From Candidatus Saccharibacteria bacterium UBA6824 (lineage in GTDB: Bacteria > Patescibacteriota > Saccharimonadia > Saccharimonadales > UBA10212), in NCBI GenBank assembly GCA_002452155.1, contig DKEK01000006.1:22532-86531 (forward strand): DNA of 64,000 nt, in the 5' to 3' direction. Under the pieces are notes generated by a model. The model searched no databases. It had not been told where the DNA came from and saw only the letters and a list, made by a program, of their open reading frames with translations. This document shows positions 8,146-46,734 of the stretch, one piece after another. The translations under genes and the position numbers were made by a program. Each line of letters begins with the position of its first letter. The first letter of the stretch is position 1.

Positions 8146-8220
8146 CCCGTTAGAGCTCCAGTTCGCTGCCAGCGAACTGGCAGATTTTATCTTTGATAAA
8201 ATACTTAGCTCTAACGGGAT
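8144..8220 (-). promoter_or_regulatory. 77-nt three-stem structured intergenic element covering the msrA SD and start codon
   Basis: 14-bp outer stem (8144-8157 with 8207-8220) enclosing a 10-bp hairpin (8158-8180) and an 8-bp hairpin (8184-8202). All pairings read directly from the sequence. Confidence 0.45.
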
Positions 8221-8667: not shown

Positions 8668-8672
8668 TTACG

Positions 8673-10196: not shown

Positions 10197-10259
10197 GAAA
10201 GAATTATAGCGTAAGTGAGTAATTTTTCTTCTCGGGAAGAAGAGCCGGTGTCAGCCGTT

Positions 10260-10721: not shown

Positions 10722-10782
10722 TAGACAAGAATGTTCCTTTAAGACCTCAAATTACTCGCTATTTTGGTTGCAACTGATTATA

Positions 10783-12033: not shown

Positions 12034-12056
12034 AAACTTATTTAGATTGTACAAGA

Positions 12057-23875: not shown

Positions 23876-26311
23876 CTAAGGTATACCAACGACGGTCGGG
23901 GTCCGGGCACTGGTGCCGGAGTTCATTGCGGGAGTGGTCGGCGGCACGGGAGAAGCGGTGTCTTGGAAGCCAGAGAAGCCAGCCGCCGGCAAGCCATTGC
24001 TTGGGGTCGTCCCCTGGATCTGGGTGGTGTTTGAGGCGACACCGACCGCGATCCAGTCGCCGGTGTTGATCCGGACCGCGGCGTTGAGCGCGACTTGGTT
24101 GAAGTTGTTAGCGTTGGCTGTGGTCGAGACCGAGACCGCCTTTTGCGTGCCCGGCACAGCACTTCGACCCGAGCCGGTGCCAGAGTAGACGGCCACTGCG
24201 ATCTGGTCGGTAGTGCCGGGAGTGGTGGAATCGATCGTGCCAATGTAGACGCCGATCTTTGAGCAGAGACCGCCCCCGGAGGTGACACGCACGTATAAGA
24301 TCCGGTTAGCGGCCCCGAGACTGCTCATAGCGGTGGTCGTTCGGGGATCGACCGCTATCGGCGCCCCGAGGCCTAGCGGGTCACGGTAATCGAGGCGGTA
24401 GAACTGGGCTCCGTTGGTGCCATCAGAGACCTCGCCGGTCAGATTGCCGGCAAAATCGTCGTTGACCGAGCGCACGCTCGTGGCAGTGGCATCGACCCGC
24501 AGGCCATAAGTCTGGAGTTTGGGGCCGCGGGTGTCGTAGCACTTGTTATGCGCCAGAGCGATGTCATTGCAGCCGGGATCGAGAGCGATACCGACCTGGT
24601 TTTGGATACTCCCACCATTGGCGGTGTTGTTGTCGATGCAGTCGTTACCGCGGATCCGGCCAACCGTCGGGGCTATGCCGCCGCTGGCCTCTAGGTAGAT
24701 CCCCGAGCGACCAAAGCCACGGACGGTGTTGTCGGTGATGTCAAAGTCGATAATCCTTCCGCTCGCCCGGATGCCGTAGGACGAGGTGGTGGTCAGTTGG
24801 CCATCTACTTGGTTGCTGCGAATCTGGAGCCGGCGGAGGTAGTTGGTCCCGACCCCCTTGGGGATATATATACCGCTGCCATTGCCGTCGGCGGCCATCA
24901 CCACAGTATTATCGTTGATGGCAAAATCGGTTTCTTCAACATCGAGATTGTTCCCCGCTTCGATCCCGATCCGGCAGTTGGAGATGACATTGTTGGAGAC
25001 CCGGACCATTTCACCGTGGGCCACTATTCCCCGCAGGCTGCCGGATGATGCGACGCCGAACTCGCTCGTCCCATCCTTGCCCCTAATTATATTGTCGGCC
25101 AACAAATACCGATGCGCGTAAATGACCCCCGACCCCGAGCTGTTCTCTGCGGCCACGCCGTGGTCGGAGAAGTCGGAGACGACATTGTTGGTGATCTGCA
25201 GGTCAAAGGCTCCTGGGGAGCCGACCTCAGCGCTAATCGCGCCGAAACAACCCTGGCTCAAATTATGGGCGGCGATCAACCTGAAGGCGTTAAGGCTGCC
25301 AACATAGATATTTTTGTCGGCCTGAACCGTAAGCGTGCCCCCGGTAGCAGCCGACGGGGTGGAGCCTATAGTAGCGGTGAAAGTCGTCGGAGACGGGACG
25401 GAGGCCACGCTTCGGTACCCGTTATAGGCTGGCACACTCACCCCGGTGACCTTGATCGGTTGTCCCACGCTCATCTTGTGGGCCGTCGATGTTGTGAAGG
25501 TGGCGACCCCGCCGCTCGCCGTCGCGGAGCTGATCGCGACGGTGGTCGTATGCTTGATGAAGCAGTGGTCGAAGATCACATCTTCTGTGTCGAGAGATGC
25601 ACCGGCCTGGGCATTGAGGGGGTTGGAGGCGCCCTGCCAGTAGCAGGTGTCGGCGGTGATGAAGGAGAAGCGAACCATGGTGCAAGAGTGGGTAGCAACA
25701 CAGTAATCGCGGCCATTGATGACGAGCAGGTGGTCGTAGTTAACGCCGTCGGTCGCATAGGACTGGATAGCTCCCGGGATCCCCCCGGCTGCCCAGGTCT
25801 GATCGCCGCCGTTGGCGTTGACGGCCAGGTTTTTGATCGCGAAGTTTTTGCGGCGTGGAGGGGTACTGCTTGAGCTGGAATTGCAGCGGATGACGTTGCG
25901 GACGCCGGTGGCGCCCGGCTTGAGGGTGATGACACTGGCCGGTCCTTCGCCGGCGATGGTAACGTTATCGATATCGATGGTGACGGTGCCCGAGATGAGA
26001 TAGTTACCGCGGGGGAAGTAAAGGGTCGCGCCGCCTGCCGGAATGGCGGCAATAGCGCTATTGATCGACGCAATGTCGTCAGTCACCCCGTCGCCTTTGG
26101 CTCCGTAGTCTTTGACGTTGATGACAAGGTCGCCTCTGCCCACGACATTAAGGTTGGTTCTAGCGGTTGGGGCATCAGTCGCTCCAGTACCGCCCTTACC
26201 TACTGAAAGAGTTTTCTGGCTACCGTCTGGGTTATGTTCTTGGTTTAGGAAGTCATTGAGGATGCCTCCCCAGGTGCCATCGTCTGAGCCGGGGGTTGGT
26301 AGTCTAGACAT
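23876..26311 (-). CDS. right-handed parallel beta-helix (tailspike-like) protein, family copy 2
   Basis: 811 aa with N-terminus MSRLPTPGSDDGTWGGILNDFLNQEHNPDG and the entry motif NVKDYGAKGDGVTDDIASIN. GC-rich, with many shadow ORFs. Convergent with prmC. Confidence 0.9.
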   Translation of the reverse strand: MSRLPTPGSDDGTWGGILNDFLNQEHNPDGSQKTLSVGKGGTGATDAPTARTNLNVVGRGDLVINVKDYGAKGDGVTDDIASINSAIAAIPAGGATLYFPRGNYLISGTVTIDIDNVTIAGEGPASVITLKPGATGVRNVIRCNSSSSSTPPRRKNFAIKNLAVNANGGDQTWAAGGIPGAIQSYATDGVNYDHLLVINGRDYCVATHSCTMVRFSFITADTCYWQGASNPLNAQAGASLDTEDVIFDHCFIKHTTTVAISSATASGGVATFTTSTAHKMSVGQPIKVTGVSVPAYNGYRSVASVPSPTTFTATIGSTPSAATGGTLTVQADKNIYVGSLNAFRLIAAHNLSQGCFGAISAEVGSPGAFDLQITNNVVSDFSDHGVAAENSSGSGVIYAHRYLLADNIIRGKDGTSEFGVASSGSLRGIVAHGEMVRVSNNVISNCRIGIEAGNNLDVEETDFAINDNTVVMAADGNGSGIYIPKGVGTNYLRRLQIRSNQVDGQLTTTSSYGIRASGRIIDFDITDNTVRGFGRSGIYLEASGGIAPTVGRIRGNDCIDNNTANGGSIQNQVGIALDPGCNDIALAHNKCYDTRGPKLQTYGLRVDATATSVRSVNDDFAGNLTGEVSDGTNGAQFYRLDYRDPLGLGAPIAVDPRTTTAMSSLGAANRILYVRVTSGGGLCSKIGVYIGTIDSTTPGTTDQIAVAVYSGTGSGRSAVPGTQKAVSVSTTANANNFNQVALNAAVRINTGDWIAVGVASNTTQIQGTTPSNGLPAAGFSGFQDTASPVPPTTPAMNSGTSARTPTVVGIP

Positions 26312-26426
26312 AGTCTAAGCTCCCACCTGCGGTGCTGGTAAAGTTCTCTCTCTCTCTCTCTCTCTGGATTTTAGACATAGCTGTTGGTTTTTACCTTCCT
26401 CATGGTGCTTGAGGTTATTGTAGCAT
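26312..26426 (-). promoter_or_regulatory. promoter (TGCTACAAT, 26417-26425) and leader of beta-helix copy 2
   Basis: Extended -10 sits 106 nt upstream of the ATG. The 61-nt block 26366-26426 matches 43742-43802 with 2 mismatches. Confidence 0.65.
26345..26365 (-). repeat. (GA)10 dinucleotide repeat in the 5' leader of beta-helix copy 2
   Basis: Perfect TC x10 on the plus strand, 34-54 nt upstream of the ATG at 26311. Confidence 0.95.
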
Positions 26427-27738: not shown

Positions 27739-28503
27739 CTAAACCGTAGAGCCGGTCCAATCCGATAAAATAAGTACAATCAGCAAAATCGCCGACATGA
27801 TTCCCAGCATCTGGCGCTGGAGTGCCGGTGTTAAACGCTCGGTAGCGTCCAAATAATAAAGCCCGGCCAAACAGTAGCCAATGGTCGTTAAAAGAACAAT
27901 TATTTGGGCAATGGTACCGTAAAACAGCAACCAATGCCCCAATATAAAGGCCAGCGAGGCGCTAAAAAAGGCCCAGACGTGCGCCAGCAACGCCGTATGG
28001 GGCTCTTCAAAACTGGTCAAGAAGTGCCGGGCCGCCAGGTATGTAACCACCCAGGTGCCGGCCACTAGTACCGGCAAGCTGGCATCGCCAAACTTGAGAT
28101 ATAAGACTGCCAGACCTAGCAGTTGGCCAATCATTGACTGGGCCGAGACGCTGAGCACGTCGCTGCGCGGTTTGAGCCAAATTAGCCAACCCATATAAAG
28201 CACCATCCAAAACAGCTGCCACCAGGTAACGGAAGTGTTGCTCATAAACAACACCAAAGATACGCCGACTATAATATCCACGCCGTTGGCAGTGGTATTG
28301 GCCAGCCAGTAACGCGGCCGGACGGCTACAATCCGCCATTTACTGATAAGTATCAGCAAGATGGCAATCGCCACAAAATTGATCCGTACCAATATGTAGG
28401 CCAAGATAGGCAAAAGCGCCAGCAGAGCCACGTGCACAAGGTGGGAGAAGCCCTTGGCCGGCTTGATTTTACCTCGTAGTACCATTAACATCTTTGCCTG
28501 CAA
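27739..28503 (-). CDS. polytopic integral membrane protein, unknown function
   Basis: 254 aa with about 8 hydrophobic segments. Overlaps the 3' end of the LCP gene by 35 nt. Confidence 0.6.
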   Translation of the reverse strand: MQAKMLMVLRGKIKPAKGFSHLVHVALLALLPILAYILVRINFVAIAILLILISKWRIVAVRPRYWLANTTANGVDIIVGVSLVLFMSNTSVTWWQLFWMVLYMGWLIWLKPRSDVLSVSAQSMIGQLLGLAVLYLKFGDASLPVLVAGTWVVTYLAARHFLTSFEEPHTALLAHVWAFFSASLAFILGHWLLFYGTIAQIIVLLTTIGYCLAGLYYLDATERLTPALQRQMLGIMSAILLIVLILSDWTGSTV

Positions 28504-30142
28504 TTATAACAAACTTGGTGCCACTTGGGGGTGTTACGCCAAGGCCGGCCGGTAAGCTGTTTTGGGCCGTTACGCCTAGACGCTGTTCCAGATAGTGGCG
28601 GGTGTATTTGGCGGCGCCTCCGCTTAAGTCAACCAGCGTCGACTTAGCCGGGTCGGTGGCTTTTGGCAGGCTATCGACAGTGGTGACATTATAACCATAC
28701 GATTTTAGCAAAGTGGACTCTTTAGTGGCCAGGCCGGCCACGGAGGTGGCGTTATAAATCGCAACCGAGGCGTTTTCTTTGGCCAAAAAGCTATCCCGCA
28801 AAGCGTTTCGGACGTAGTTTTGGATATCACCATAAGCGCTCAGTCCGGCTTTGGGTTGTACTATTGATATGCCGCCCAGGTTACCGGTGGTAAGAAAGTC
28901 GTGCGGCGGGGTCACTAGATCGATAGAGACAATATTGCTGGCCGGAATTTTGCCCATAACCTGGTAAAGACGTGTGATATCATCGCGGGAAAAGTCTGTA
29001 TAAATGTTGCTGCCCAGGCCCGAAAGCAGGTTGGAAACTTTTACCGGATTACTGAAAGTACCGACGTTGAAGATTTTTTCTTTTAGAGCGGTTATCATCA
29101 GCCGCTGGCGTTCGGAGCGGTCGAAATCGCCGCGTGGACTGGTATAACGCGACCGGGCGTACAAAAGCGCCCTGGTGCCGTCAAAATGCTGCTGGCCAGC
29201 CAGCACATTTAAGCTATAGTTGCGATGCATGCCTTCATCCCAAAGGAAATCTTTAACACTTAACTCTTTGGGGACATTGACATCTATACCACCGACAGCG
29301 TCAACCGTTTGTCTAAAAGCCGCAAAATCGACCACCGCGTGGTAATGAATAGGGATGCCTAAGAGGGGTTCTAGGGTCTTATCGACCCAATCCACGCCAT
29401 CGGCGCTCTTTGTAGCCGAGTCTTTTGATTTACTATTGAGTTTTCCGTAGTAGTAAGCTTCGTTTATCTTGCGCGAGCCGTCGGCCGGAATCTTGACCCA
29501 TAAATCCCGCGGGATGCTTAAAAGGGCGACCTTATTATTAACCGGGTCAATACTGGCTATCATAATCGTGTCAGTTAAATCCGGGCCGTCCTGATGCTCC
29601 GGGCCGCCATTGCCCAAAAGCAATATGTTAATTCGGCCATCTCCTTCACCGCGCAGCTTGCTTATATCAATATTGGAGGCCAGCGCCGGCGCGCCACCGC
29701 CGCCCCTAAATAAATGGCGTTGGGTGATATAAAATTTTAGGCCCATAAAAAGGCCGCCGGCGATAATGAGCGCCAAGAGTGTTAGCGCGCTGCGTTTAAG
29801 GCCCCAGTTAGACAGCCAGCCGAAAGGCCAGCGTTTTTTAGCCTTTGAAACCGGAAGATCATCTAAAATAATTGGTTCATCGAGCAGCAGATCGGCTTCG
29901 GCACCGGTGACCGCCAGGCCTAGAGCGCCGGAGCCGGAACGCATTGCGTGAAAGCCTTCAGCCCGCCGCAAGTTACTACCCAGCGAATTAGCCGGCTGAG
30001 CCCGGTTAGCATGAAACGGGGTGGCCGAGGGCGCACCTAGTCTACCGTCAGGCAGTCCCAGCCGGCGGCCATCGCCGATAATTCCATCTATGGAGCGTCC
30101 GCGCCCCGCGGACGTCTGATTTTTTTTATTACCATGCATCAC
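28469..30142 (-). CDS. LytR-CpsA-Psr (LCP) family cell-envelope phosphotransferase
   Basis: 557 aa with an N-terminal anchor and the LCP core (ILLLGNGG...DTIMIASIDP...LLSIPRDLWV). Confidence 0.88.
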   Translation of the reverse strand: MMHGNKKNQTSAGRGRSIDGIIGDGRRLGLPDGRLGAPSATPFHANRAQPANSLGSNLRRAEGFHAMRSGSGALGLAVTGAEADLLLDEPIILDDLPVSKAKKRWPFGWLSNWGLKRSALTLLALIIAGGLFMGLKFYITQRHLFRGGGGAPALASNIDISKLRGEGDGRINILLLGNGGPEHQDGPDLTDTIMIASIDPVNNKVALLSIPRDLWVKIPADGSRKINEAYYYGKLNSKSKDSATKSADGVDWVDKTLEPLLGIPIHYHAVVDFAAFRQTVDAVGGIDVNVPKELSVKDFLWDEGMHRNYSLNVLAGQQHFDGTRALLYARSRYTSPRGDFDRSERQRLMITALKEKIFNVGTFSNPVKVSNLLSGLGSNIYTDFSRDDITRLYQVMGKIPASNIVSIDLVTPPHDFLTTGNLGGISIVQPKAGLSAYGDIQNYVRNALRDSFLAKENASVAIYNATSVAGLATKESTLLKSYGYNVTTVDSLPKATDPAKSTLVDLSGGAAKYTRHYLEQRLGVTAQNSLPAGLGVTPPSGTKFVIIAGKDVNGTTR

Positions 30143-30217: not shown

Positions 30218-30823
30218 ATGGAATCCCAAAATTTCTCGGGCCGCTTTAGGCGGACTTTAAATAATGAATGGCTATCGGCCGCATTGTTTATCGCCGGCGT
30301 GGCTTTAGTCTATTTTTTTATCCAGGGCTTTTTAATTCGTACCTACCTGGTGGAGGGCCAAAGCATGGAAACTACGCTGCAAAACGGCGACCGCTTGATT
30401 ATAGATAAAGTACCGCGGACGCTCGCCAGGCTAACCGGCCACGCATATATACCACACCGTGGCGATATTATCATTTTTAACCAGTCGGGCTTGGTGATTG
30501 GCTCCGGCGGCGAAAGACAGCTTATCAAAAGGGTTGTCGGCTTGCCCGGCGAACGGGTGGTAGTCAAAAATGGCAGCCTCATCATCTACAGCCAGGCCCA
30601 ACCGGGTGGTTATGAGCCCGATAAAACCGGTCTCTACCACATAGACGCTTTGTCTACAGCCGGCAATGTTGATGTTACCCTTGCGGCCGGCGAAATTTTT
30701 GTCTGCGGCGATAACCGGGCCAATTCCGAGGATTCGCGTTATTTTGGGCCGGTGAATGCCGACAAAGTTGTTGGCAAATTATCGCTACGCTTTCTGCCGC
30801 CTGGCAAAGCCCAGAAGTTTTAA
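30218..30823 (+). CDS. lepB: signal peptidase I
   Basis: 201 aa with a TM anchor, the catalytic Ser context GQSMETTL, and the KRVVGLPGE and GDNRANSEDSRYFG boxes. Confidence 0.9.
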   Translation: MESQNFSGRFRRTLNNEWLSAALFIAGVALVYFFIQGFLIRTYLVEGQSMETTLQNGDRLIIDKVPRTLARLTGHAYIPHRGDIIIFNQSGLVIGSGGERQLIKRVVGLPGERVVVKNGSLIIYSQAQPGGYEPDKTGLYHIDALSTAGNVDVTLAAGEIFVCGDNRANSEDSRYFGPVNADKVVGKLSLRFLPPGKAQKF

Positions 30824-32525: not shown

Positions 32526-35500
32526 CTAGTACTTGATTATGTAGTTCAGTGTGAGGTAAGCCCCGCTGTCGAGTGGCGAGCCGGTTGGTCCGATGGTGAC
32601 ATTGCTGTGCGTACCGCTGCCGTCGTTTCTCGCCACGGCGTTGTTCCCATCGCCACAACAGTCCACCGTATCGAGAAGATGATGAGACTTTGGGGTGCGA
32701 TTTGCAAGTGTGGCCCCCTCATTATTAGCAAGAGCATTGACGTCGGTGTTGGAAGAGTTGAGTCCAACCGGCGCTCGACCCCGCAGGTCGGGGAGATTAA
32801 AGGTGGTAGAACCATCACCCACCCCGTAGGTCGTGCCGACGACAGCGAAGAGAGAGGCATAGGTTGTTCGCGAGACGGCCGAACCATCGGCAAGCAGGTA
32901 ACCCGTCGGGGCGCTCGACCCGGCAAAAGGCACAACTGTTCCGGCCGGATTAATCACGGCGCTGCCGCTGAGATCACTCCAGGTACCGCTGGCACAGCCA
33001 CGGAAGGTACCGGAATTGGAGTTATAGTAGATGGCACCGTCGATACAGGTAGGATCACCAGAGGTGTTTTTATTGCCCAGCACCAGCAAAACCGGCGTCG
33101 AGCCGGCAGCACCCAGCGTAATCTTGGAATTGGTGGTGTCGACGCTAAACAAGCTGGCAGTCGAGGTGTTCTGAATCTGGAAAACAGCAGTATTATCAGT
33201 ACCCGGTTTGACAATTACGCCGCCCGTAGCACCCGCCGGGCTAAGGTTAATGTTGCCGGTGCCGGACTGAAGAAGAAGTGAACTGGCAGCTACGGTGGAG
33301 CCAATGGTGATGACGTTTTTGCCAGTGGAAGTAGCTGTAGCACCGATGTTAATGGTGTTGGTGTTGCCTGAAGCGACATTGCCGTTACCAATGTTTATGG
33401 TTTCGCCGGCGGTGGATCGGCCAAAAATTAGGCTGCCAGTGTTAGCCGTAGAGCCCACTGTTACAGTATTGACGTTGGTAGTGCCAATGGAGATAGTGCC
33501 CGAGGTGCCAGCACTCAGGCCAATCGCACTAGCACCAGTACCACCTTGAATGGTCGTGGCCGAAGTGCCGAGTAAATTGCCGATAGTTACATTGGTAGTT
33601 GAGGAAGCAGTGGCGTTGTTGCCAACGTTGACGGTTTGGGCAACAGCTCCGGTAGTAGTTCCAATCTGTACTGTGCCAGCTATGCCGCCGTTGCCTAGCT
33701 CAACTGAGGCGCCGGAGGTATTGACCAGCAGATAGTTGTTGCCGGCCAAGTTTTGAATCCGAAAAGCAGTAGTGGAATCGGCCGCATTTTGGGCCAAAAA
33801 TGTGCCACTGAATTTGTTATTACCGGTGAAGGTCTGCGGGCCGGTGCCGTTTAGCAGAGCGACATTACCAGAGAGTCTAGCATCAGCTACCGTACCAGAG
33901 CTTATGTTCGAGCCGTTGAGACTGGTTAGCGAAGCACCAGAGCCGGAGAAAGTGCCGGCAATGGCCGTGCCGGAGATGTTGAGGTTGCCGGTTTGAGCAG
34001 AACCTGGGGTAGAACCTTGTAATTGAACATAGCCACTACCGCCAATTGATGGAGCATAGCCAGAACAGACAGAGCCAGTCGTACAAATGATGCCGGTTTC
34101 GGCCGGCAGGGTGAGACTGAAGGTGCCCGCCCCAGGATTGGCAGCTTGGAGGGAAATATTACCAGAACCACCGGAGTTATAGAGGGTTAAGTTACCGGTA
34201 AGGGTTGAGGCTTTACCTAAAACTACCCTGGAGCCAGAGGTGTCCACCAGCAGCAGTTCATTGCCGGCCAGGTTTTGAATCCTAAAGGCAGTGGTGGAGT
34301 CGGCCGCGTTTTGGGCCAAAAATGTGCCACTGAATTTGTTATTACCGGTAAAGGTTTGCGGGCCGGTGCCGTTTAGCAGAGCGACATTACCAGATAGACG
34401 GGCGTCAGCTACCGTACCAGAGCTTATGTTGGAGCCGTTGAGACTGGTTAAGTTAACTCCGGAAACAGCTGGCAATTGGGTCGAGCCATTTAACTGAACA
34501 AGTTGCGAGGCCCCGTTAAAGCTGTTGCCCTGCAGTGTGACATTAGAGCTCAGGCGAATATCAGCCACTGTCCCCGAGCTTAGGTTGGAACCGTTTAAAT
34601 TAGTTAGGCTGGCGCCGTTGCCAGAGAATGTACCAGCGATAATAGTGCCCGAAACATTGATATTGCCAGTTTCCTGAGTTCCCGGCGTGCTAGCTTGCAA
34701 GCTGACGCAGTTGCCGAAGGCACAGCTGCCGGTACCGGGTGGACCGGCTGGACCGGTTGGACCGGTGGCGCCATTAGTACCATTTGTGCCAGCGGTACCC
34801 GTGGCGCCGGCTGGACCGGTGGCACCAGGGACACCGGTGGCGCCGGTTGCACCCTGAAGACCTCCCGCGCCAGTGGGACCGCTGCCGGTACAGCCGGTGG
34901 CTGTACAGACCAATACTTTATTAATAGTAAGGCCGGAGTTATTGAGGGAGCTGGTACCGCCGGAGGCAGCCAGACTGCCGCTGGCGGTGAAGCCGCCACT
35001 CAGTTGTAATACACCAGTGGTTGGTTCTGCGACCAGTTGGCCGAGTGTCAGGTTTTTGCCCTTGGCCAGGACGGTGTCGAGGTTTAGGGTCAGCTGGCCG
35101 CCTTTGGTGCTCAGGAGGGCGGAGTCGCTGGCTTGGGAACTTAGGTCGGTGGCCGGCGGTTTATTTTGGCGTAGCAGGCCGGAAAGGGCGAAGGCACCAG
35201 AGACTAAAGCTATGAGTGCCACAAAAGCCAGGCCTACAAAGATTGGCCGGTGGAAAAAAAGACCTGTTCGTCGGGGACCACTGCCCGAATCTTCGATGCC
35301 GCTGTTTACAGGGGCCGACGTAGCTTCCCCCAGCTCAGGAACGGCGGCTAGAGGCACCGAAGTTAATTGATTAATTAAGGAGGGGTGAAGCGGCGGTGTA
35401 CCTATAACCGTTGGCGGGCTAGCCGGCGGCTGCCAGGAGTTTTCCAGCTGCCGCCAGTCAGTGGGGCTGGGGTGGTTGTTGGCAAGGGGTGGTGCGGGAA

Positions 35501-35951
35501 ATGGCGTAGTCTCGAGTGATTTAATTTCTGAGGTTGTGGATGGCGCCCAAGACGGCGCTGCTGCCGGTTGAGCCGGGGGCGCCTCAGACAGAGGTTGGAC
35601 TGGAGATGACGGTGGTGCCTGAGGGGTGGTAAGGGTTGAGGGTGAGGTAATTGCTTGGGAGTTCTCAAAACCGGCCCACCCGGGTAAATCGTCTTCAGCC
35701 ACCCCAGTGCTACTATCGTAATTATCTATGGGCGCTTCCGCTATGGCCGGCGCCAAGGCCCGTAGGCCTAGTGAGCCTTTTAGCTCATCCTCTAATTGCG
35801 CTCCCAGCCGGGCCAGCTTATCGGGCGCAAGCTTGATCGCCTGGCTGGCTCTAAAGACGCGTTTTCGGCAACGCGCCGAACAGACCTTGGCATTGGGCCG
35901 GCCTTCAAACTGCTCATTGCAACCTGGACATAGCTTAGTTTTGGGAGCCAT
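32526..35951 (-). CDS. 1141-aa membrane-anchored fibre protein: N-terminal zinc ribbon, Pro-rich linker, TM helix, collagen-like Gly-X-Y tract, repeated fibre modules, phage tail-collar domain
   Basis: CPGC...CSARC near the N-terminus and the TM segment IFVGLAFVALIALVSGAFAL. GXY repeats are encoded at ~34731-34885. The tail-collar-type motif PFAGSSAPTGYLLADGS...TTFNLPDLRGRAPVG is encoded at 32763-32948. Confidence 0.85.
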   Translation of the reverse strand: MAPKTKLCPGCNEQFEGRPNAKVCSARCRKRVFRASQAIKLAPDKLARLGAQLEDELKGSLGLRALAPAIAEAPIDNYDSSTGVAEDDLPGWAGFENSQAITSPSTLTTPQAPPSSPVQPLSEAPPAQPAAAPSWAPSTTSEIKSLETTPFPAPPLANNHPSPTDWRQLENSWQPPASPPTVIGTPPLHPSLINQLTSVPLAAVPELGEATSAPVNSGIEDSGSGPRRTGLFFHRPIFVGLAFVALIALVSGAFALSGLLRQNKPPATDLSSQASDSALLSTKGGQLTLNLDTVLAKGKNLTLGQLVAEPTTGVLQLSGGFTASGSLAASGGTSSLNNSGLTINKVLVCTATGCTGSGPTGAGGLQGATGATGVPGATGPAGATGTAGTNGTNGATGPTGPAGPPGTGSCAFGNCVSLQASTPGTQETGNINVSGTIIAGTFSGNGASLTNLNGSNLSSGTVADIRLSSNVTLQGNSFNGASQLVQLNGSTQLPAVSGVNLTSLNGSNISSGTVADARLSGNVALLNGTGPQTFTGNNKFSGTFLAQNAADSTTAFRIQNLAGNELLLVDTSGSRVVLGKASTLTGNLTLYNSGGSGNISLQAANPGAGTFSLTLPAETGIICTTGSVCSGYAPSIGGSGYVQLQGSTPGSAQTGNLNISGTAIAGTFSGSGASLTSLNGSNISSGTVADARLSGNVALLNGTGPQTFTGNNKFSGTFLAQNAADSTTAFRIQNLAGNNYLLVNTSGASVELGNGGIAGTVQIGTTTGAVAQTVNVGNNATASSTTNVTIGNLLGTSATTIQGGTGASAIGLSAGTSGTISIGTTNVNTVTVGSTANTGSLIFGRSTAGETINIGNGNVASGNTNTINIGATATSTGKNVITIGSTVAASSLLLQSGTGNINLSPAGATGGVIVKPGTDNTAVFQIQNTSTASLFSVDTTNSKITLGAAGSTPVLLVLGNKNTSGDPTCIDGAIYYNSNSGTFRGCASGTWSDLSGSAVINPAGTVVPFAGSSAPTGYLLADGSAVSRTTYASLFAVVGTTYGVGDGSTTFNLPDLRGRAPVGLNSSNTDVNALANNEGATLANRTPKSHHLLDTVDCCGDGNNAVARNDGSGTHSNVTIGPTGSPLDSGAYLTLNYIIKY
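33741..33928 (-). repeat. internal repeat copy A of the fibre gene
   Basis: ~190 bp nearly identical to 34263-34450 (period 522 bp). Encodes ...NGSNISSGTVADARLSGNVALLNGTGPQTFTGNNKFSGTFLAQNAADSTTAFRIQNLAGN. Confidence 0.9.
34263..34450 (-). repeat. internal repeat copy B of the fibre gene
   Basis: See 33741-33928. Confidence 0.9.
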
Positions 35952-35980
35952 TTTTTTGTGTTTTTGCGGTTTTTCTTTTT

Positions 35981-36000
35981 TATATACGCGCGCGTATATA
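35981..36000. promoter_or_regulatory. perfect 20-bp alternating Py-Pu palindrome TATATACGCGCGCGTATATA in the fibre-gene promoter region
   Basis: Read directly. It lies 30-49 nt upstream of the ATG at 35951 and contains TATATA -10-like hexamers on both strands. Confidence 0.5.
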
Positions 36001-36020
36001 TGTGAACATCTTTAAGTATT

Positions 36021-36071
36021 AAGCATAAGCGTCCCGTTGTCAAGAGTTACGGAACGTTTTTGTCCCGCTTT
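36021..36071 (+). repeat. 51-bp direct repeat copy 1, containing a plus-strand terminator-like hairpin + T5
   Basis: Identical to 36214-36264 (period 193 bp). Hairpin CGTCCCGT/ACGGAACG at 36030-36056, followed by TTTTT. Confidence 0.85.
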
Positions 36072-36213
36072 GGCAGGCACCTTAGTTGGTTGGCTTGATT
36101 GCACCGGATCTGCGCCCTCATTTTGGGCCAGCTTAGCGGCTCCCTAGGGCCGCCCGCTTCCTTGCTCTTTGACAGACGGGTTTTCAAGTAACCTGTAGGG
36201 AATAAGACAGTAT

Positions 36214-36264
36214 AAGCATAAGCGTCCCGTTGTCAAGAGTTACGGAACGTTTTTGTCCCGCTTT
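36214..36264 (+). repeat. 51-bp direct repeat copy 2, containing a plus-strand terminator-like hairpin + T5
   Basis: Identical to 36021-36071. Confidence 0.85.
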
Positions 36265-40584: not shown

Positions 40585-40719
40585 TCAAGAGCAGCCGGTT
40601 GTGGAACCGCAGGAAGTACAGACATAGCAGCTGCCGGCTCTTTGGGTTTGGTTACCGCAGTTGTAGCATAGCGGCGCAGCGTCATCTAGGCGGATAGTAT
40701 CCTCCTTTGGCTCAGGTGG
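40585..40719 (-). pseudogene. orphan duplicate of the nrdJ 3' end (last 44 codons + stop)
   Basis: Encodes PPEPKEDTIRLDDAAPLCYNCGNQTQRAGSCYVCTSCGSTTGCS*, identical to the C-terminus of the intact nrdJ (43867-44001). The frame is closed directly upstream by TGA (40720-40722) and has no start codon. Confidence 0.85.
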
Positions 40720-40721
40720 TC

Positions 40722-41432
40722 AGAGGACGTTCCTCTATAGGTGTTAATCTATGCTAGTTTAATTCAATAATTAGCTAACTGGTATTTAAATTCGCTTAGC
40801 ATGTTTTTTTGCTCTTCGTAATCGGCTACGAATTTTAGGTAATCTGCTCTGGAAGCAAATAGTTTTAAAGCCATCGAGGTATTGAGCCACTGCGGCTCGT
40901 GTCCGGCCAGGTAATAATTGAGGCTTGAGAAGCGATAGTTTCGCCATAGTCTAGGGTTAAGATGTATGTAACGGGTGATGTGTTGCAGGTATGAGTCGTT
41001 GTCGAGCCTGACGGCTTTATAGCGGCTTTCGAACAAAGGCCCGCTGCGCTGGTATTTAAGGTTGAAATAACGGCTGTAGCTGGTCATTAAACTGCGCATT
41101 AGCTTCTCCAGATAAGGCACGTCTTTTTGATAAACCAGCAGGTGCAGATGGTTGGACATAAGACAGTAAGCCAGCAATTGCACCCTGCCCCGATAGTGCG
41201 GGTATGGCTCGCCGGTTTTACTGAGTGCTGATTTGTTAGACAGGTATCTTTCAAACAAAGCCAAAAAGTACTTATAGTCGGCTGCTTCGAGAAATATCTT
41301 TTGTTGGTTAGCTCCCCTAGTGTAAATGTGATAGTACGAGTCGGGAGCTTGTTCTTTATTAACATTGCGCGATGGCATGGAGCAATTATACTGAAACTAG
41401 CACCAAATTACACCTATAGAGGAACGTCCTCT
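40722..41432. mobile_element. RAYT-type unit: Y1 (HUH) transposase gene flanked by perfect 22-bp inverted, hairpin-forming repeats
   Basis: AGAGGACGTTCCTCTATAGGTG (40722-40743) is the exact reverse complement of 41411-41432. Each end contains the hairpin AGAGGA-CGT-TCCTCT. Confidence 0.75.
40764..41378 (-). CDS. REP-associated tyrosine (IS200/IS605-like Y1, HUH) transposase
   Basis: 204 aa with YHIYTRG, the HUH motif in CLMSNHLHLLV, and the catalytic Tyr context RYIHLNP. Confidence 0.85.
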   Translation of the reverse strand: MPSRNVNKEQAPDSYYHIYTRGANQQKIFLEAADYKYFLALFERYLSNKSALSKTGEPYPHYRGRVQLLAYCLMSNHLHLLVYQKDVPYLEKLMRSLMTSYSRYFNLKYQRSGPLFESRYKAVRLDNDSYLQHITRYIHLNPRLWRNYRFSSLNYYLAGHEPQWLNTSMALKLFASRADYLKFVADYEEQKNMLSEFKYQLANY

Positions 41433-41488: not shown

Positions 41489-43660
41489 TCATACGGTTGA
41501 TGAATCCACGATCAGGCCGGTCGCCGCAAGCGCGGTCAGCAGCGACGCCAGGGCTGCGTTCCCTCCGCGCGATCCTGTGACGGTCTGCTGCGTTGCTGTC
41601 GCGTGGTTGTAAAAGCCGAGATTCGCGCCAAGATGCCGAAGGTCGAGGGTAACGTGGAGCGAGTCGTCCGTCTTGAGCACGTCGGCGGCACTGCGGTAGA
41701 GGATCGTGTCGAGGGAACCCGCGCCACTACCCCATCGGATCGCACCGTCAGCGCGAAGCAGCCAGCGGGCGAAGCCGTCGCCAGTAACGAGTCCCTGAAG
41801 CTGTGTGGAGGTTGAGAGAGCGCCAGTGGCCGAGATGAGTGCCCCTGACCCCAAAGAGAAGACACCACTGACCGGATTGAGCGTGAACATACCCACCCCG
41901 GCATTGCGAATCGTAATTATGCCGTCGTGACTAAAATTGACAAGATTGTAAGTTCCAGTGCTCGACTGGAACTGCACTATATCAGAGGTTTGCCCCCCGG
42001 TTTTTTCACGGAATATGACCGGCACCACATCTGCGGTGGGCACGACAATTTGGGGCGTCGAAGGTGACAAGAGCACTGACGACAGCCGGGGATCAGTGGT
42101 TCCCACCGCTGCAACCCATCCGGTCTTGCCCGAACCGGTTTCCTTTACGTAGAGCGATGTCGATGCACCGCCATCGGTGCGACTGTACGCGGAGCCAACG
42201 GGGGCATACAGTACGCCTTCAGGCGAGCCACTACCAATCGCCTCCCGCACAAACCCAGCAGGCGGGGCCATCCCAAGACCGGCGCCACTTTCAACCTCGC
42301 GGTAGTCACGAATTACGCAGTTCAGGAAAACGTCGGGGTCGGCAAACGCGCCTGATCCCACCAGCATCCCCAATGTGACACGGCTATTGTTCGCCTGTTC
42401 GATTACCCCTGAGATCACGCACCCGTCGATTGTGTGACCGCGCGCAACATTGTCAGGGGATCCATCGGCGTTGATTTTTGCGAAAGCGACCCCCTCGGTG
42501 AAAGCCGCACCCGCCGTGCCGATAATATTTTTCAGGTTGACGGTGATCCTGATGTTCCTGTAAACGAGCGCGGTCGTACTGGTGAAAGACACAAGGATGG
42601 GGGCTGCTCCTTGGATACTCCCATCGCTCTCACGGTCATAGTAGTTCAGGGTGATGTTTTCAACCGAGTCGGTGTAACCAACTTTCGAGCTGTTCGACTG
42701 GTTCTTCGCTCTGACAGTAACCTCGTGATTCTTGGCTCCGTACACGAAGTAGGCACGACCTGGGCTGTCGGCATCTACCATCGCCACTAGGTCATCCCCG
42801 GAGTTCTGACAACTCAGCGGATAGAAAGTAAGACTTGTCTTGATGCGCGCATTGATTTGCCGACTCTTATAACTGTCAGGGTCTGAAATGGCCTTTTGGA
42901 ACGCGACGCCAGCACGACCGCCGATTAGTTCCACGTCGAGGTTGATGCCCACACAACCCTGGTAGAACATGAGCAGGTCACGACCCACCTGGCCGTTGCC
43001 GCTGGAGACATCCTGGGACGTGAACTTGAGCCTACCAATGTCGATGTTGTTGCAGGCGCTGAAGCCAAAAAGCACGCCGACCTGTGATCCCGTGAAGGTG
43101 TAGGTGTCGGCAATGCTCGCACCTGACCCCCAGATTTTGATGCCGCGAAGGTTTGTGAAGAGATAGAGAGTAGCGAGACCTGACACCTTGTAAGTGCCTG
43201 CGTCGGGAAAGAACAAGGTGCCACCACCGGAAGCCTGGAGGGCTGCGCACGCCGCAGTTATCGCAGTCGTATCGTCAGCAACGTTATTACCGACCGCACC
43301 GTAAGCTTTGACATTAAAGACTTGGGAGCCTTTGTCTAAGAAAGTGCCGGCATTAAAGGTTTTAGTTCCGGTAATAGTTTCAGTACCAGCCAGGTGAACC
43401 ACAGCCGAATCAGTCGCTTTGGCGGCTAGGTCTGAGGTTAAGTTAGTGATTTTAGATTCAGAGATGACTGAAACATCGGCGTCGGTGATATTAAGAGCAG
43501 CTAGTTTTGACTTAACAATAGCAGCCGTGGACGCTACCTTGGCATTGGTAATAATTCCGTCTTTGAGCGTGCCGTCTGGGTTATGTTCTTGGTTTAGGAA
43601 GTCATTGAGGATGTCTCCCCAGGTGCCATCATCAGAGCCGGACTTTGGTAGTCTAGACAT
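41489..43660 (-). CDS. right-handed parallel beta-helix (tailspike-like) protein, family copy 3
   Basis: 723 aa with N-terminus MSRLPKSGSDDGTWGDILNDFLNQEHNPDG and the entry motif NVKAYGAVGNNVADDTTAIT. The C-terminal motif is LGFYNHATATQQTVTGSRGGNAALASLLTALAATGLIVD. GC-rich. Confidence 0.9.
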   Translation of the reverse strand: MSRLPKSGSDDGTWGDILNDFLNQEHNPDGTLKDGIITNAKVASTAAIVKSKLAALNITDADVSVISESKITNLTSDLAAKATDSAVVHLAGTETITGTKTFNAGTFLDKGSQVFNVKAYGAVGNNVADDTTAITAACAALQASGGGTLFFPDAGTYKVSGLATLYLFTNLRGIKIWGSGASIADTYTFTGSQVGVLFGFSACNNIDIGRLKFTSQDVSSGNGQVGRDLLMFYQGCVGINLDVELIGGRAGVAFQKAISDPDSYKSRQINARIKTSLTFYPLSCQNSGDDLVAMVDADSPGRAYFVYGAKNHEVTVRAKNQSNSSKVGYTDSVENITLNYYDRESDGSIQGAAPILVSFTSTTALVYRNIRITVNLKNIIGTAGAAFTEGVAFAKINADGSPDNVARGHTIDGCVISGVIEQANNSRVTLGMLVGSGAFADPDVFLNCVIRDYREVESGAGLGMAPPAGFVREAIGSGSPEGVLYAPVGSAYSRTDGGASTSLYVKETGSGKTGWVAAVGTTDPRLSSVLLSPSTPQIVVPTADVVPVIFREKTGGQTSDIVQFQSSTGTYNLVNFSHDGIITIRNAGVGMFTLNPVSGVFSLGSGALISATGALSTSTQLQGLVTGDGFARWLLRADGAIRWGSGAGSLDTILYRSAADVLKTDDSLHVTLDLRHLGANLGFYNHATATQQTVTGSRGGNAALASLLTALAATGLIVDSSTV

Positions 43661-43802
43661 AGTCTAGACCTCCAGCTGCAGGGCTGTTTAAGCTCTCCCT
43701 CTGAAGGTTTTTCTGGGTGGGTAAGAGTGTGTGGGTGTGTGGGATTTTAGACATAGCTGTTGGTGTTTACCCTCCTCATGGTGCTTGAGGTTATTGTAGC
43801 AT
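43661..43802 (-). promoter_or_regulatory. promoter (TTGCAG-16-TGCTACAAT, -10 at 43793-43801) and ~125-nt leader of beta-helix copy 3
   Basis: The extended -10 and the 61-nt leader block are shared with copy 2. The AAAAACCTTCAGAG block is shared with copy 1. SD GGAGG lies 10 nt before the ATG. Confidence 0.65.
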
Positions 43803-43866: not shown

Positions 43867-46734
43867 TCAACTGCAGCCAGTGGTGCTGCCACAGGAAGTG
43901 CAGACGTAGCACGAGCCGGCTCTTTGGGTTTGGTTACCGCAGTTGTAGCATAGCGGCGCAGCGTCATCTAGGCGGATAGTATCCTCCTTTGGCTCAGGCG
44001 GGCTGGTAGTCTCCTGCTGGAGATGTTTGAGGTCAGCCGTGCTGGCGGCTACAGTCGTGACGGCTTCGGTGATGGCGGCTTCGGCCTGGGCTACGGTCTC
44101 AAGAGCTTGTTCAACAATTACATCCTGGGGGGCCGCCGCTTCGGATAGTAAGCTGGTTTGGCCCGGCGGCTGGTCGTCTATGCTGGCCAGGCCGACTTCC
44201 AGGCGTTCGTCGAAGCTCAAGTAGGTTTTACCAAGCCGGCGGAAAATATAGTCAATCAGCGAACTGGCAGTCCGGATTTCCGGGTCATCGGTAATGCCGG
44301 CCGGCGCGAAGCTAGTGTTGGCAAATACCCGAACATAACTTTTTAGCGGTACGCCGTATTGCAGGCCATAACTAACGGCTATACCGAAGGCGTCCATGAC
44401 GCCCCGCAGGGTCGAACCCATTTTAGAACTGCTGATGAACAACTCACCGGGCGTACCGTCGTCGTATTCACCAACAATCACGTAGCCCCGGGTGCCGGCG
44501 ACTGTAAATTTAAAGTTTTTGGCGTTGCGGATTCGCGGCAGGTCGCGACGGACCGCTGTATGCGGCACCAGGCTTTCGTTAAATGTAGCAACGAGGGCTG
44601 CCGGACTGGCGTTGCCGGCGGTGGCCACGGACGCCGGTTCTTCTTTAGCGCCGTCTTTTTTGGCCATCGAAAGCGGCTGGGCAACTTTGCAGTTATCGCG
44701 GTAAATAGCCACCGCTTTGAGGCCCATCTTCCAAGCGTCCATGTGCAACTGTTCGACATCCTCAACACTAACGTCCTCGGGCATGTTGACGGTTTTGGAA
44801 ATGGCGCCGGAAATAAACGGCTGGACGGCACTCATCATTTTGACGTGGCCCAAGTAGTGGATGGCGTTATCGCCCATGCTGCAGGCAAAGACCGGTTCGT
44901 GATCTTTTTTCAGATGCGGTGCGTGAAGAATGGTCTTTTCAACGTCGATGTAATTGACGATGTCATCGATCTGGGACTTGTTGTAGCCCAGCGCCTTAAG
45001 CGCCCGCGGCACGGTTTGGTTGACGATGTGCATGGTGCCGCCACCGACCAGTTTTTTGACCTTAACCAGCCCTAAGTCCGGTTCAATACCGGTGGTATCA
45101 CAGTCCATCATTAGGCCAATGGTGCCGGTTGGCGCCAGCACAGTAGCTTGGGAGTTGCGCATGCCGTGCAGCTCGGACAGCTCGACAGCCTCGTCCCAGG
45201 AGCTAGCAGCGGCGGAGAGTAGTTCTTCGGCCGCCAGCGACGGATCAATTTTTTTGACTTCATCGCGGTGCATCTTGAGCACTTTATTCATCCCCTCCAC
45301 GTCTTTGTCATAGCCAGCAAAAGGGCCGACCCGCTTGGCAATTTTGGCGCTGGTAGCGTAAGCGTGGCCGGTCATGAGGGCCGTGATGGCCGCCGCTTGG
45401 GCCCGGCCCTCGTCGCCGTCATAAGGCAGGCCTTGAGCCATTAGCAGCGCGCCAAGATTGGCATAACCGAGTCCCAGCTCGCGATAAGCTCGGGCGGTTT
45501 TAGCGATGCTTTTGGTCGGGTACTCGCTATAGCCGACCAGAATTTCCTGGGCCGTAAACATCAGCTCGACAGTGTGGCGGAAGGCCTCAATATCGAAACT
45601 AAAGTCGTCGTTTAGGTATTTGAGCAAGTTAATCGAAGCCAAGTTGCAAGCCGAATTATCGAGGTGCATATATTCACTGCAGGGGTTAGAAGCATTGATA
45701 CGGCCAGCGTTGGGCGCCGTGTGCCAGCGGTTGATAGTGGTATCAAACTGCATGCCGGGATCGGCGCACTCCCAGGCGGCTTCGGCGATTTGGCGGAAAA
45801 TATCCCGGGCCTTAACCCGCGCTACGGCCTTGCCGGTGGTAACAGCGCTCAGATTCCAGTCGTCGTCGTTTTGGACAGCCTGCATAAAATCATCAGTTAC
45901 ACGCACCGAATTGTTGGCGTTTTGGTACTGGACCGAGAAAGAATCCTTGCCGTCAAGCGTCATGTCAAAACCGGCCGTTTCCAGCACCCGGGTCTTGCGC
46001 TCTTCTATAGCCTTGCACCAAATAAACTCCTGCACGTCCGGGTGGCTGGCGTTTAAGATGACCATTTTGGCCGCCCGGCGAGTTTTGCCGCCGCTTTTAA
46101 TAGCGCCGGCCGATGAATCGGCGCCGCGCATAAATGACAGCGGCCCGGAAGCCGTGCCGGCACTCTTGCCCAGCGGCTCGCGGGAGCTGCGTAGGCTGCT
46201 GACATTGATACCCGACCCACTGCCGCCCTTAAAGATCATGCCCTCTTCGTAGTACCAGTTAAGGATGGCCGGCATGGTGTCTTCAACCGCCAAAATAAAG
46301 CAGGCGCTGGCCTGCTGGGAACGGCCGTGGGCGCCAATATTAAACCAGACCGGGCTGTTAAAGGCCGCCCGCTGGGTGGCTAAGATGTACTTAAGTTCTT
46401 CGCGGAAATCCTCGGCCTCGGCGGGGCTGACAAAATAGCCACCTTGGACGCCTTCACGGGTAATGGTATCGACAACCCGGTTGATAAGTTGTTTGAGGGA
46501 TCGTTCGCGACCCTGGGTATCGGGAGTACCGGTAAAATATTTTTGGGCGACGATGTTGATGGCGTTAAGGCTCCAGCCGTCGGGAAAATCGACATCTTTT
46601 TGTTCAAATACCGGCTTGCCGGTGCCCGGATTAGTGATTAATGAATCGCGTTTGGTCCATGATAGGCTGTCGTAGGCCTTAGTTTTTGGCTTCGTGAAAA
46701 GCCGACGAACCGACAACGTGGCTGCTTGTGCCAT
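43867..46734 (-). CDS. nrdJ: adenosylcobalamin-dependent (class II) ribonucleotide reductase with C-terminal Cys4 zinc-ribbon tail
   Basis: Class II RNR similarity (NPCSEY..., TGIEPD). The start is set at MAQAATLSV (46734), preceded by AAGGAGAGGG. The track ORF extends to 46848. Confidence 0.9.
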   Translation of the reverse strand: MAQAATLSVRRLFTKPKTKAYDSLSWTKRDSLITNPGTGKPVFEQKDVDFPDGWSLNAINIVAQKYFTGTPDTQGRERSLKQLINRVVDTITREGVQGGYFVSPAEAEDFREELKYILATQRAAFNSPVWFNIGAHGRSQQASACFILAVEDTMPAILNWYYEEGMIFKGGSGSGINVSSLRSSREPLGKSAGTASGPLSFMRGADSSAGAIKSGGKTRRAAKMVILNASHPDVQEFIWCKAIEERKTRVLETAGFDMTLDGKDSFSVQYQNANNSVRVTDDFMQAVQNDDDWNLSAVTTGKAVARVKARDIFRQIAEAAWECADPGMQFDTTINRWHTAPNAGRINASNPCSEYMHLDNSACNLASINLLKYLNDDFSFDIEAFRHTVELMFTAQEILVGYSEYPTKSIAKTARAYRELGLGYANLGALLMAQGLPYDGDEGRAQAAAITALMTGHAYATSAKIAKRVGPFAGYDKDVEGMNKVLKMHRDEVKKIDPSLAAEELLSAAASSWDEAVELSELHGMRNSQATVLAPTGTIGLMMDCDTTGIEPDLGLVKVKKLVGGGTMHIVNQTVPRALKALGYNKSQIDDIVNYIDVEKTILHAPHLKKDHEPVFACSMGDNAIHYLGHVKMMSAVQPFISGAISKTVNMPEDVSVEDVEQLHMDAWKMGLKAVAIYRDNCKVAQPLSMAKKDGAKEEPASVATAGNASPAALVATFNESLVPHTAVRRDLPRIRNAKNFKFTVAGTRGYVIVGEYDDGTPGELFISSSKMGSTLRGVMDAFGIAVSYGLQYGVPLKSYVRVFANTSFAPAGITDDPEIRTASSLIDYIFRRLGKTYLSFDERLEVGLASIDDQPPGQTSLLSEAAAPQDVIVEQALETVAQAEAAITEAVTTVAASTADLKHLQQETTSPPEPKEDTIRLDDAAPLCYNCGNQTQRAGSCYVCTSCGSTTGCS

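Follow-up and report, generated by a model that had tools for sequence, protein, structure and literature searches.

A candidate membrane-anchored adhesion fibre with a phage tail-collar head, encoded among housekeeping genes of a Saccharibacteria-type genome

A minus-strand gene in a 64,000-nucleotide stretch of Candidatus Saccharibacteria bacterium UBA6824 (contig DKEK01000006.1; the whole stretch is referred to below as the window) encodes a 1141-residue protein that joins a cytoplasmic-type Cys4 finger, a proline-rich linker, a single transmembrane (TM) helix, a collagen-like tract and a repetitive stalk to a phage tail-collar head. The protein is read here, with moderate confidence, as a trimeric, type-II-anchored adhesion or recognition fibre of a Saccharibacteria-type cell, gripping the surface of another cell. 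Such a role is favoured because the protein belongs to a mosaic family in which the anchor is conserved, the stalk repeats vary and the tips are interchangeable. Collagen tracts and collar domains are each obligately trimeric in known examples, and a homotrimer is proposed because both kinds of module are present, a 17-triplet collagen-like helix and a collar of the T4 gp12 type.

In the proposed mechanism, strong tandem promoters and an A-rich leader acting independently of a Shine–Dalgarno (SD) sequence would drive expression; the TM helix would serve as a signal anchor, with the finger and the Pro-rich linker staying in the cytoplasm and the C-terminal ∼880 residues exported to form the homotrimer. 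The collagen rod and duplicated stalk modules would hold the collar head off the cell, and a hypervariable tip, lying between the collar core and the C-terminal strand, would provide the ligand-binding site. The tip may bind a ligand exposed by another cell, plausibly by the bacterium that hosts an epibiont, in the manner of a phage receptor-binding protein.

Type IV pili and a few generic adhesin domains account for most of what is understood of how ultrasmall epibiotic Patescibacteria recognise and hold their host cells (PMC10633639, PMC11623550). Adhesins are essential for the epibiotic growth of a cultivated Saccharibacterium, for which VCBS, dockerin and FnIII domains, and not collar fibres, are listed (PMC10633639); in the literature searched, neither collar proteins nor tail-fibre-like ones are described from Saccharibacteria or Patescibacteria. 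An initial annotation, made from the letters alone and silent on the strand, had described a Cys4 motif, a Pro-rich linker of ∼200 residues, a single TM helix, a collagen-like tract and repeated modules in this product, all of which were verified in the sequence.

Collar head, stalk and membrane anchor

The tail-collar motif proposed in the initial annotation is borne out by both profile and fold. Pfam Collar (PF07484) matches residues 1004–1061 over the complete profile (positions 1–57 of 57) with an E-value of 5.6e-24 and a score of 84.3 bits (cut-off 24), and PHROG tail, tail-collar and tail-fibre families match residues 725–1120 only (best E 1e-26), with tail collar fibre and tail protein profiles spanning residues 725–1059 and 771–1079; an NCBIfam scan adds nothing useful, its SclA match scoring 17 bits, far below a cut-off of 400. 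The tail fibre of PDB entry 8kec was matched by sequence (E 5.7e-7). An AlphaFold2 (AF2) monomer model of residues 911–1141, built from an alignment of 100 collar proteins (A1), has a mean predicted local distance difference test score (pLDDT) of 74; values exceed 90 in the collar and the C-terminal strand and are 60–70 in the tip. Foldseek comparison of this model with the PDB returned the cyanophage A-1(L) tail fibre (8kec, E 1e-5) and T4 gp12 (1pdi, 5iv5 and 1ocy, E 5e-5 to 2.5e-4), and also the T4 gp37 tip (2xgf), the Bizionia protein C24 (6ov6) and a Pseudomonas phage tail fibre; the match probability is 1.00 for 8kec, 1pdi, 5iv5 and 1ocy, and at least 0.94 for 8kec, T4 gp12 and 6ov6. The low TM-scores (0.29–0.35) reflect the comparison of a monomer model with trimers whose chains intertwine. 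The protein closes with LTLNYIIKY, in which N226, I228, I229 and K230 of the alignment are nearly invariant across the 100 sequences.

In phage genomes, the head matches 484 records, among which Microbacterium and Arthrobacter phages are enriched; with minor tail proteins of Arthrobacter phages, to take one case, 80% of the query aligns at ∼36% identity. The hint of an actinobacterial host that this enrichment might offer was not used, the collection being heavily biased by SEA-PHAGES sampling.

Comparison with five collar-tipped Saccharibacteria-type relatives places the variation of the head in the tip insert, which is only 30–40% identical and varies several-fold in length, between a collar core of 75–84% and a C-terminal strand of 79–86% identity. 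A conserved scaffold with a variable tip is a pattern typical of receptor-binding proteins. No template/variable repeat pair involving the C-terminus was found within the window, and a diversity-generating retroelement is not supported.

Behind the head, the stalk is built from related modules. The first copy contains LQASTPG..QETGNINVSG, two SGTVAD.RLS repeats, a beta-meander marked by DSTTAFRIQN, and CTTGSVC, and is homologous to the stalks of relatives P0002–P0060. Residues 497–550 and 671–724 are 96% identical, and DNA identity between the module copies, which are spaced by 522 nt, is 89.6% in a 222-nt comparison and 86% in one of 238 nt; the second copy is a recent internal duplication of the first. 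The neck that joins the third beta-meander to the collar is conserved in P0002, P0014–16, P0022, P0026 and P0123.

The collagen-like tract, for which ∼14 triplets had been claimed, holds 17 on counting, and its DNA forms a 9-nt periodic repeat family (D1). It is bracketed by two C-x4-C pairs, C349/C354 and C410/C415, conserved among relatives as VCT..GC and C..G.C.SLQ, which could form interchain staples. The first pair ends a juxtamembrane block, LNLDTVLAKGK...SGG.S.LNNSGL.I.KV.VCT..GC, that is invariant in alignment A3 and also present in P0002, P0006, P0009, P0011 and P0018.

At the opposite end of the protein, the finger has the form C-x2-C-x12-C-x3-C (C8-x2-C11 and C24-x3-C28, CPGC...CSARC). 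Sub-threshold Pfam matches were obtained to DUF2256 in 18 of 21 members (best E 0.0025) and to DUF2116 in 11 of the 21 (8.7e-5), with weak matches to YacG and NinG below Pfam gathering scores; the finger of the window protein itself reaches 12.5 bits against a gathering cut-off of 25 for its treble-clef match, and a search of the PDB with a profile of the zinc-finger alignment returned noise and no relative. On this weak evidence the finger would resemble a treble-clef/FCS-type finger more than a classical zinc ribbon, so that the Cys4 finger of the initial annotation stands and its assignment as a ribbon would be less apt. Proline makes up 16% of residues 41–235, and the motif embedded in the linker has invariant positions L146, E147, T148, W166, Q168, L169, N171, S172, W173, Q174 and P176 in A3.

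A Cys4 finger suits a reducing compartment such as the cytoplasm. The TM helix carries a nearly invariant SGAFALSGLL among homologues; RR..HR precedes it and R.NK follows it, which leaves more positive charge on the N-side. In P0003–P0005, P0013 and others, 10–20 residues precede a TM segment that stands as a classical signal-anchor before a homologous stalk. The protein is probably a single-pass type II membrane protein, N-in/C-out, because it has one TM helix, N-side positive charge, a Cys4 finger and relatives with signal-anchors in front of homologous stalks; the earlier placement of the fibre part outside the cytoplasm is favoured by the same features.

A mosaic family and competing explanations

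Approximately 60 homologues were compared, nearly all of which have a TM segment or signal-anchor at the N-terminus. They carry 1 to 10 SGT..D.RLS repeats and 0 to 19 collagen triplets, in line with the length variation that the initial annotation had thought worth comparing, and their C-terminal endings are of at least 10 kinds, NYIIKY, WCQGKNVR, FDYMVQQ, YYWVIE and GFRVAR among them; P0002 ends in a GH43_C2/LamG-like domain and P0272 has a Kelch ectodomain. By sequence comparison these proteins make up a small, unnamed mosaic family with a shared zinc-finger/TM anchor, variable stalk repeats and swappable tips. The locus defines a fibre family in which phage receptor-binding hardware is carried on a cell-owned membrane anchor; the kind, a cellular phage-fibre-like adhesin, is known, and the zinc-finger/TM anchor is previously undescribed. 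Variation concentrated at the tip is the pattern expected of host-range determinants. If the adhesion reading is true, the family would give candidate host-specificity factors in uncultivated Saccharibacteria and a new N-terminal anchoring module composed of zinc finger and TM helix. In other Saccharibacteria-type contigs (L002 2-3823, L007 2-2092 and L003 12861-16961), family fibre genes lie beside further open reading frames (ORFs) of more than 1200 residues, which suggests tandem arrays of fibre paralogues in some genomes.

Several observations weigh against the adhesion-fibre interpretation. The sequences establish the domain make-up, the conservation of the long frame, a syntenic setting free of phage genes, the mosaicism of the family and the variability of the tip, whereas topology, trimer state, surface exposure, adhesive role and ligand are all deduced, and the structural models are monomeric only. 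The collagen-like tract scores just short of the Pfam Collagen (PF01391) cut-off (26.1 against 27.2 bits) and the precomputed Collagen match at JGI is flagged ‘weak’, so that the profile check proposed earlier is borderline, although the triplet run itself is clear. Residues 409–1003 of the stalk had no match in 50,697 phage records (tblastn), and therefore only the C-terminal third is demonstrably phage-like; the AF2 monomer model of the stalk is poor (pLDDT 58, and poor over residues 756–915 too), with only the three-strand beta-meander around D(S/N)T.AF.IQN, repeated thrice, reaching 70–80, and Foldseek comparison of the stalk model with the PDB gave no match at E<0.1. Within its group the window protein has the shortest tip, with SHH and a CC pair in place of the G-H-x-H motif that P0123, P0016 and P0022 carry. 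The epibiotic lifestyle is assumed from the names of homologues (Candidatus Saccharibacteria/Patescibacteria), and the terms ‘Collar’ and ‘Collagen’ are absent from the supplementary annotation tables for S. epibionticum, so no essentiality data transfer. Two features of the gene model, a shorter public call and a split finger in one relative, count on the same side and are taken up with the start codon below.

Unlikely, though the best placed of the alternatives, is a structural role in the envelope: as a spacer across the wall, for instance, or as a surface-coat or S-layer-like fibre, the protein would shape or protect the cell surface and recognise no specific partner. Strong tandem consensus promoters suggest abundance, the gene keeps a conserved position beside the envelope genes lepB, LCP and HtrA, the collagen rod and juxtamembrane block could merely span the wall, and this member has a very short tip. 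Set against this are the identity of the head, a receptor-binding module of phage fibres, the concentration of variation in the distal tip above a conserved scaffold, and the swapping of tips among family members, which is typical of recognition proteins and not of coats.

Somewhat less likely again is a transmembrane contact sensor, in which engagement of the fibre would be relayed through the TM helix to the finger and the W.QL.NSWQ motif, and from there to a cytoplasmic protein or nucleic acid, adhesion being secondary. Retention of the finger, with nine positions invariant in 21 sequences (M1, C8, C11, F15, A21, C24, S25, C28 and R29), and of the linker motif where ectodomains differ is consistent with such a function, as are the highly basic segment that follows the finger (CRKR..R.K), its weak likeness to treble-clef DUF2116, DUF2256 and YacG, and the occurrence of fingers as stand-alone ORFs of 69–140 residues. 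The Pfam similarities are, however, all sub-threshold; the finger lacks H-x3-C-x2-C, the signature of zinc-binding anti-sigma factors (ZAS); and the gene stands between rplU and parA, with no potential partner, be it a sigma factor (ECF or other), a kinase or a regulator, beside it. Many relatives with the same stalk have no cytoplasmic domain, and the fibre therefore functions without one. A sensing role is in any case compatible with adhesion.

A further alternative concerns the gene product itself. The JGI gene call for the same gene (P0001, ‘microcystin-dependent protein’; JGI 3300039109, Ga0120178_000001) starts at V199 (GTG) and yields 943 residues, and the 198 N-terminal residues that hold the zinc finger and most of the linker are thus missing from the public annotation; with that call, ∼0.9 kb between rplU and the fibre gene stays unannotated. 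That this shorter protein is the real product, the finger and Pro-rich part being a separate small gene or untranslated, is improbable. In its favour, the finger in L003 (GCA_040961535.1) is a separate 77-residue ORF (7754-7987) in another frame, ending 14 nt before the fibre ATG (fibre 8001-12062), and stand-alone finger ORFs of 69–140 residues occur elsewhere (P0254, P0263 and P0274–P0277); the module is therefore separable, or frameshifts are present in some assemblies. Against it, the window has one unbroken frame from the ATG at 35951, and V199 is preceded by neither an SD sequence nor a promoter-like site. The N-terminal 357 residues, with the four cysteines, linker motif, TM helix and juxtamembrane block, are shared in frame with P0017 (1598 residues), P0121 and P0122 at 50–53% identity, the DNA of L005 indicates that P0122 too starts with the finger, and finger, linker motif and TM helix are also kept in frame in P0244, P0249, P0267, P0268 and P0272. 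When 1.84 billion cluster representatives were searched exhaustively with HMMER, 43 relatives of the N-terminal module were recovered at E<=1e-3, many of 1200–3600 residues with the finger at residue 1 and the TM helix at residue 120–300; such a search was needed, a word-indexed search with the N-terminus having missed P0017 because of its low-complexity words. The long, 1141-residue form is better supported than the 943-residue form, because its N-terminus is conserved in frame and a promoter and A-rich leader stand just upstream of the long ATG.

The upstream region contains a 52-nt perfect direct repeat (36020-36071 and 36213-36264, spacing 193 nt) with a near-consensus promoter-like site in each copy, and the fibre gene thus has putative strong tandem promoters. 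The combination of TTGACA...cgcttat(a/g)ctt with an A-rich leader directly 5′ of the long start is conserved at four loci (the window, L001, L003 and L005). The leader, 77% A, lacks an SD sequence, as the initial annotation had remarked; this is nothing special here, because SD-like motifs, even by a lax definition, precede only 17 of the 46 ORFs in the window. A TATAAT-like hexamer lies 5–9 nt before the start codon of at least 10 of the 46 (for example before 4071-5369, 8673-10196, 12802-13971, 28469-30142, 30218-30823, 40764-41378 and 52770-54719), which suggests that leaderless or SD-independent initiation is common in this genome. A structured small RNA between the repeats was considered and is not supported: the 141-nt segment folds no better than shuffled sequence (z-score 0.12) and has no Rfam match, a permissive Rfam scan of the spacer between rplU and the fibre gene giving chance-level results only (E>=2).

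More doubtful than any of these is a bifunctional polar organiser, in which the fibre would fix one pole to the host and the finger, part of a conserved cytoplasmic module with the basic helix and the W.QL.NSWQ motif, would tether or signal to a partner inside the cell, perhaps nucleic acid or ParAB. For an epibiont whose buds form at the pole away from its host, contact would in this way be coupled to polarity and division. The fibre gene adjoins parAB in two genomes; if true, phage receptor-binding parts would here make up a signalling adhesin of a new, outside-in class.

Genomic setting and feature coordinates

The fibre is read as chromosomal and owned by the cell. On the minus strand the order, upstream to downstream, is ileS, rplU, the fibre gene, parA and parB; after parB follow the signal peptidase gene lepB (plus strand), an LCP protein gene, an unknown ORF and HtrA, with SecA and class II ribonucleotide reductase genes farther off in the window. 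The gene for the collar-tipped relative P0016 is likewise followed by parA, parB, lepB, LCP, an unknown ORF and HtrA; that for P0002 in L003 comes after ribonucleotide reductase...ileS-rplU, and that for P0121 in L004 after ileS...rplU and a small ORF. An rplU-fibre or fibre-parAB arrangement thus recurs in three other genomes, and P0022 and P0026 occupy a different housekeeping slot, beside ROK kinase, S1 and IF-2 genes. It had been remarked earlier that the gene replaces rpmA, which usually follows rplU; rpmA is indeed absent from the window, and the replacement is a remark on position only. The GC content at third codon positions (GC3) of the fibre gene is 0.56, against 0.50–0.73 in its neighbours, and recent horizontal acquisition was rejected on this host-like value.

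The fibre gene is a resident cellular gene and not a prophage remnant, because its neighbours are housekeeping genes, its slot is repeated in other genomes and its GC3 is host-like. By far the least probable explanation, a remnant or active prophage or part of a tailocin encoding a true virion tail fibre, can draw on the Collar domain and PHROG tail families, on the head shared with 484 phage records (including Arthrobacter and Microbacterium minor tail proteins at ∼36% identity) and on three tailspike-like proteins in the window, and is opposed by flanks free of phage structural, packaging or lysis genes, by the recurrent chromosomal slot and host-like GC3, by an N-terminus made of finger, linker and TM anchor instead of a baseplate- or tail-docking domain, and by a stalk with no counterpart in phage genomes.

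Those three proteins are paralogues of 720–810 residues on the minus strand (14170-16590, 23876-26311 and 41489-43660) with a pectate-lyase-like beta-helix (PF12708); they also match the PHROG ‘tail spike’ annotation, their 5′ ends are conserved, and two of them share a 61-nt upstream element that is 97% identical (26366-26426 and 43742-43802). They add a further set of phage-like surface hardware to this housekeeping region, and together with the housekeeping syntenic context they lend support to the earlier idea that the cell displays phage-like adhesion hardware.

Elsewhere in the window, the class II ribonucleotide reductase gene has a duplicate of its 3′ end (40585-40719 and 43867-44001; 135 nt, 90% identity, ∼3.3 kb apart), and this duplicate lies beside an IS200/Y1-transposase-like ORF (40764-41378, minus strand), which suggests local rearrangement mediated by an IS200/Y1-like element. 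Rfam at the gathering threshold and ARAGORN returned nothing over the whole window. Coordinates of the fibre gene, its upstream region and the parts of its product are collected in Table 1.

Table 1. Parts of the fibre gene, its product and its upstream region, by window position
Feature	Residues	Position	Strand	Basis
Distal promoter-like site and second repeat copy		36209..36264	minus	
Distal promoter-like site, TTGACA-16-TATACT, just after rplU stop		36209-36236	minus	promoter scan, 11/12 match
Upstream region: proximal promoter, repeat copy, A-rich leader		35952..36071	minus	
Proximal promoter-like site, TTGACA-17-AATACT		36015-36043	minus	promoter scan, 10/12 match
Fibre gene, 1141 residues plus stop	1-1141	32526..35951	minus	ORF list, ATG start, single uninterrupted frame
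Cys4 zinc finger and basic helix (C8, C11, C24, C28, CRKR)	1-35	35847..35951	minus	conserved Cys, predicted cytoplasmic
Pro/Ala/Ser-rich linker	36-236	35244..35846	minus	composition, predicted cytoplasmic
Linker motif SLET.P...W.QL.NSWQ.P	145-176	35424-35519	minus	alignment A3
TM helix / signal anchor	237-260	35172..35243	minus	sole Kyte-Doolittle peak >1.6
Juxtamembrane ectodomain, ends VCTATGC (C349-x4-C354)	261-357	34881..35171	minus	conserved block
Collagen-like tract, 17 Gly-X-Y triplets, then C410-x4-C415	358-408	34728..34880	minus	regex run
Stalk module copy 1	409-641	34029..34727	minus	self-comparison, motif positions
Stalk module copy 2	642-755	33687..34028	minus	81-96% amino-acid identity to copy 1
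Gly/Thr/Asn/Ser/Ile-rich short repeats, beta-helix-like	756-915	33207..33686	minus	weak internal repeats
Third DNTAVFQIQN beta-meander and neck (LLVLGNKNTSGDPTC..YYNS..FRGC)	916-1003	32943..33206	minus	motif scan
Phage tail collar core	1004-1064	32760..32942	minus	Pfam PF07484
Distal tip insert (SHH, CC1098-1099)	1065-1127	32571..32759	minus	variable among relatives
C-terminal strand AYLTLNYIIKY	1128-1141	32529..32570	minus	conserved, pLDDT >90

Relation to known systems

The fingers of DUF2116, DUF2256 and YacG share the C-x2-C...C-S-x2-C-R pattern followed by a basic helix, but belong to small, soluble proteins, whereas the finger here heads a giant single-pass membrane protein. COG4675 ‘microcystin-dependent’ proteins, from which the JGI name of the gene derives and of which Bizionia argentinensis C24 (6ov6) is an example, are likewise chromosomal collar-domain proteins; most are of 150–400 residues and have no anchor, collagen tract or stalk, in contrast to the anchored 1141-residue fibre.

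Bacterial collagen-like surface proteins of the Scl/BclA type are attached through a C-terminal LPXTG anchor or by N-terminal attachment to the exosporium basal layer, and their heads are N-terminal (Scl) or TNF-like (BclA). The window fibre differs in its predicted N-terminal TM helix with cytoplasmic finger and in its phage collar head. The likeness lies in a Thr/Pro-rich Gly-X-Y rod that presents a globular head at the surface of a cell or spore and varies in triplet number, as in Scl1/Scl2 of Streptococcus, BclA of the Bacillus and Clostridioides exosporium, and Pasteuria fibres (PMC6238073).

With T4 gp12 and the 8kec collar protein, the fibre shares the collar core, a head or tip insert placed before a conserved C-terminal strand, and a match in both fold and sequence. 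It differs in lying outside any virion gene cluster, in having a membrane anchor in place of a baseplate-binding N-terminus, and in its much shorter tip; of the H-x-H metal motif, which hardly varies across the A1 collar alignment, it has ‘SHH’ only.

The closest parallel in organisation is offered by the MAT fibres of Bdellovibrio, trimeric fibres of the predator surface that keep their N-terminal region constant and exchange their adhesive tips (PMC10769870). In Bdellovibrio bacteriovorus, as here, the fibres are encoded by the cell, resemble phage tail fibres, and combine an invariant N-terminus, a long repetitive stalk and exchangeable tips in a multi-member mosaic; both also occur in a bacterium that lives on other bacteria, a lifestyle that is assumed for the organism studied here. 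The MAT N-terminal domain binds an outer-surface element, whereas a finger and TM helix take its place here in a presumably monoderm envelope, and a collagen tract and a collar head of the gp12 type also set the window fibre apart from MAT; the S74 chaperone domain was not detected in it by Pfam. The full protein gave no match to the solved MAT structures in the PDB at E<=1, and because homology to these solved fragments is not detectable the likeness is taken as an analogy and not as membership. If the adhesion reading is true, the Saccharibacteria-type fibre would be a second independent case, after Bdellovibrio MAT, of bacteria-on-bacteria lifestyles converging on phage-like fibres.

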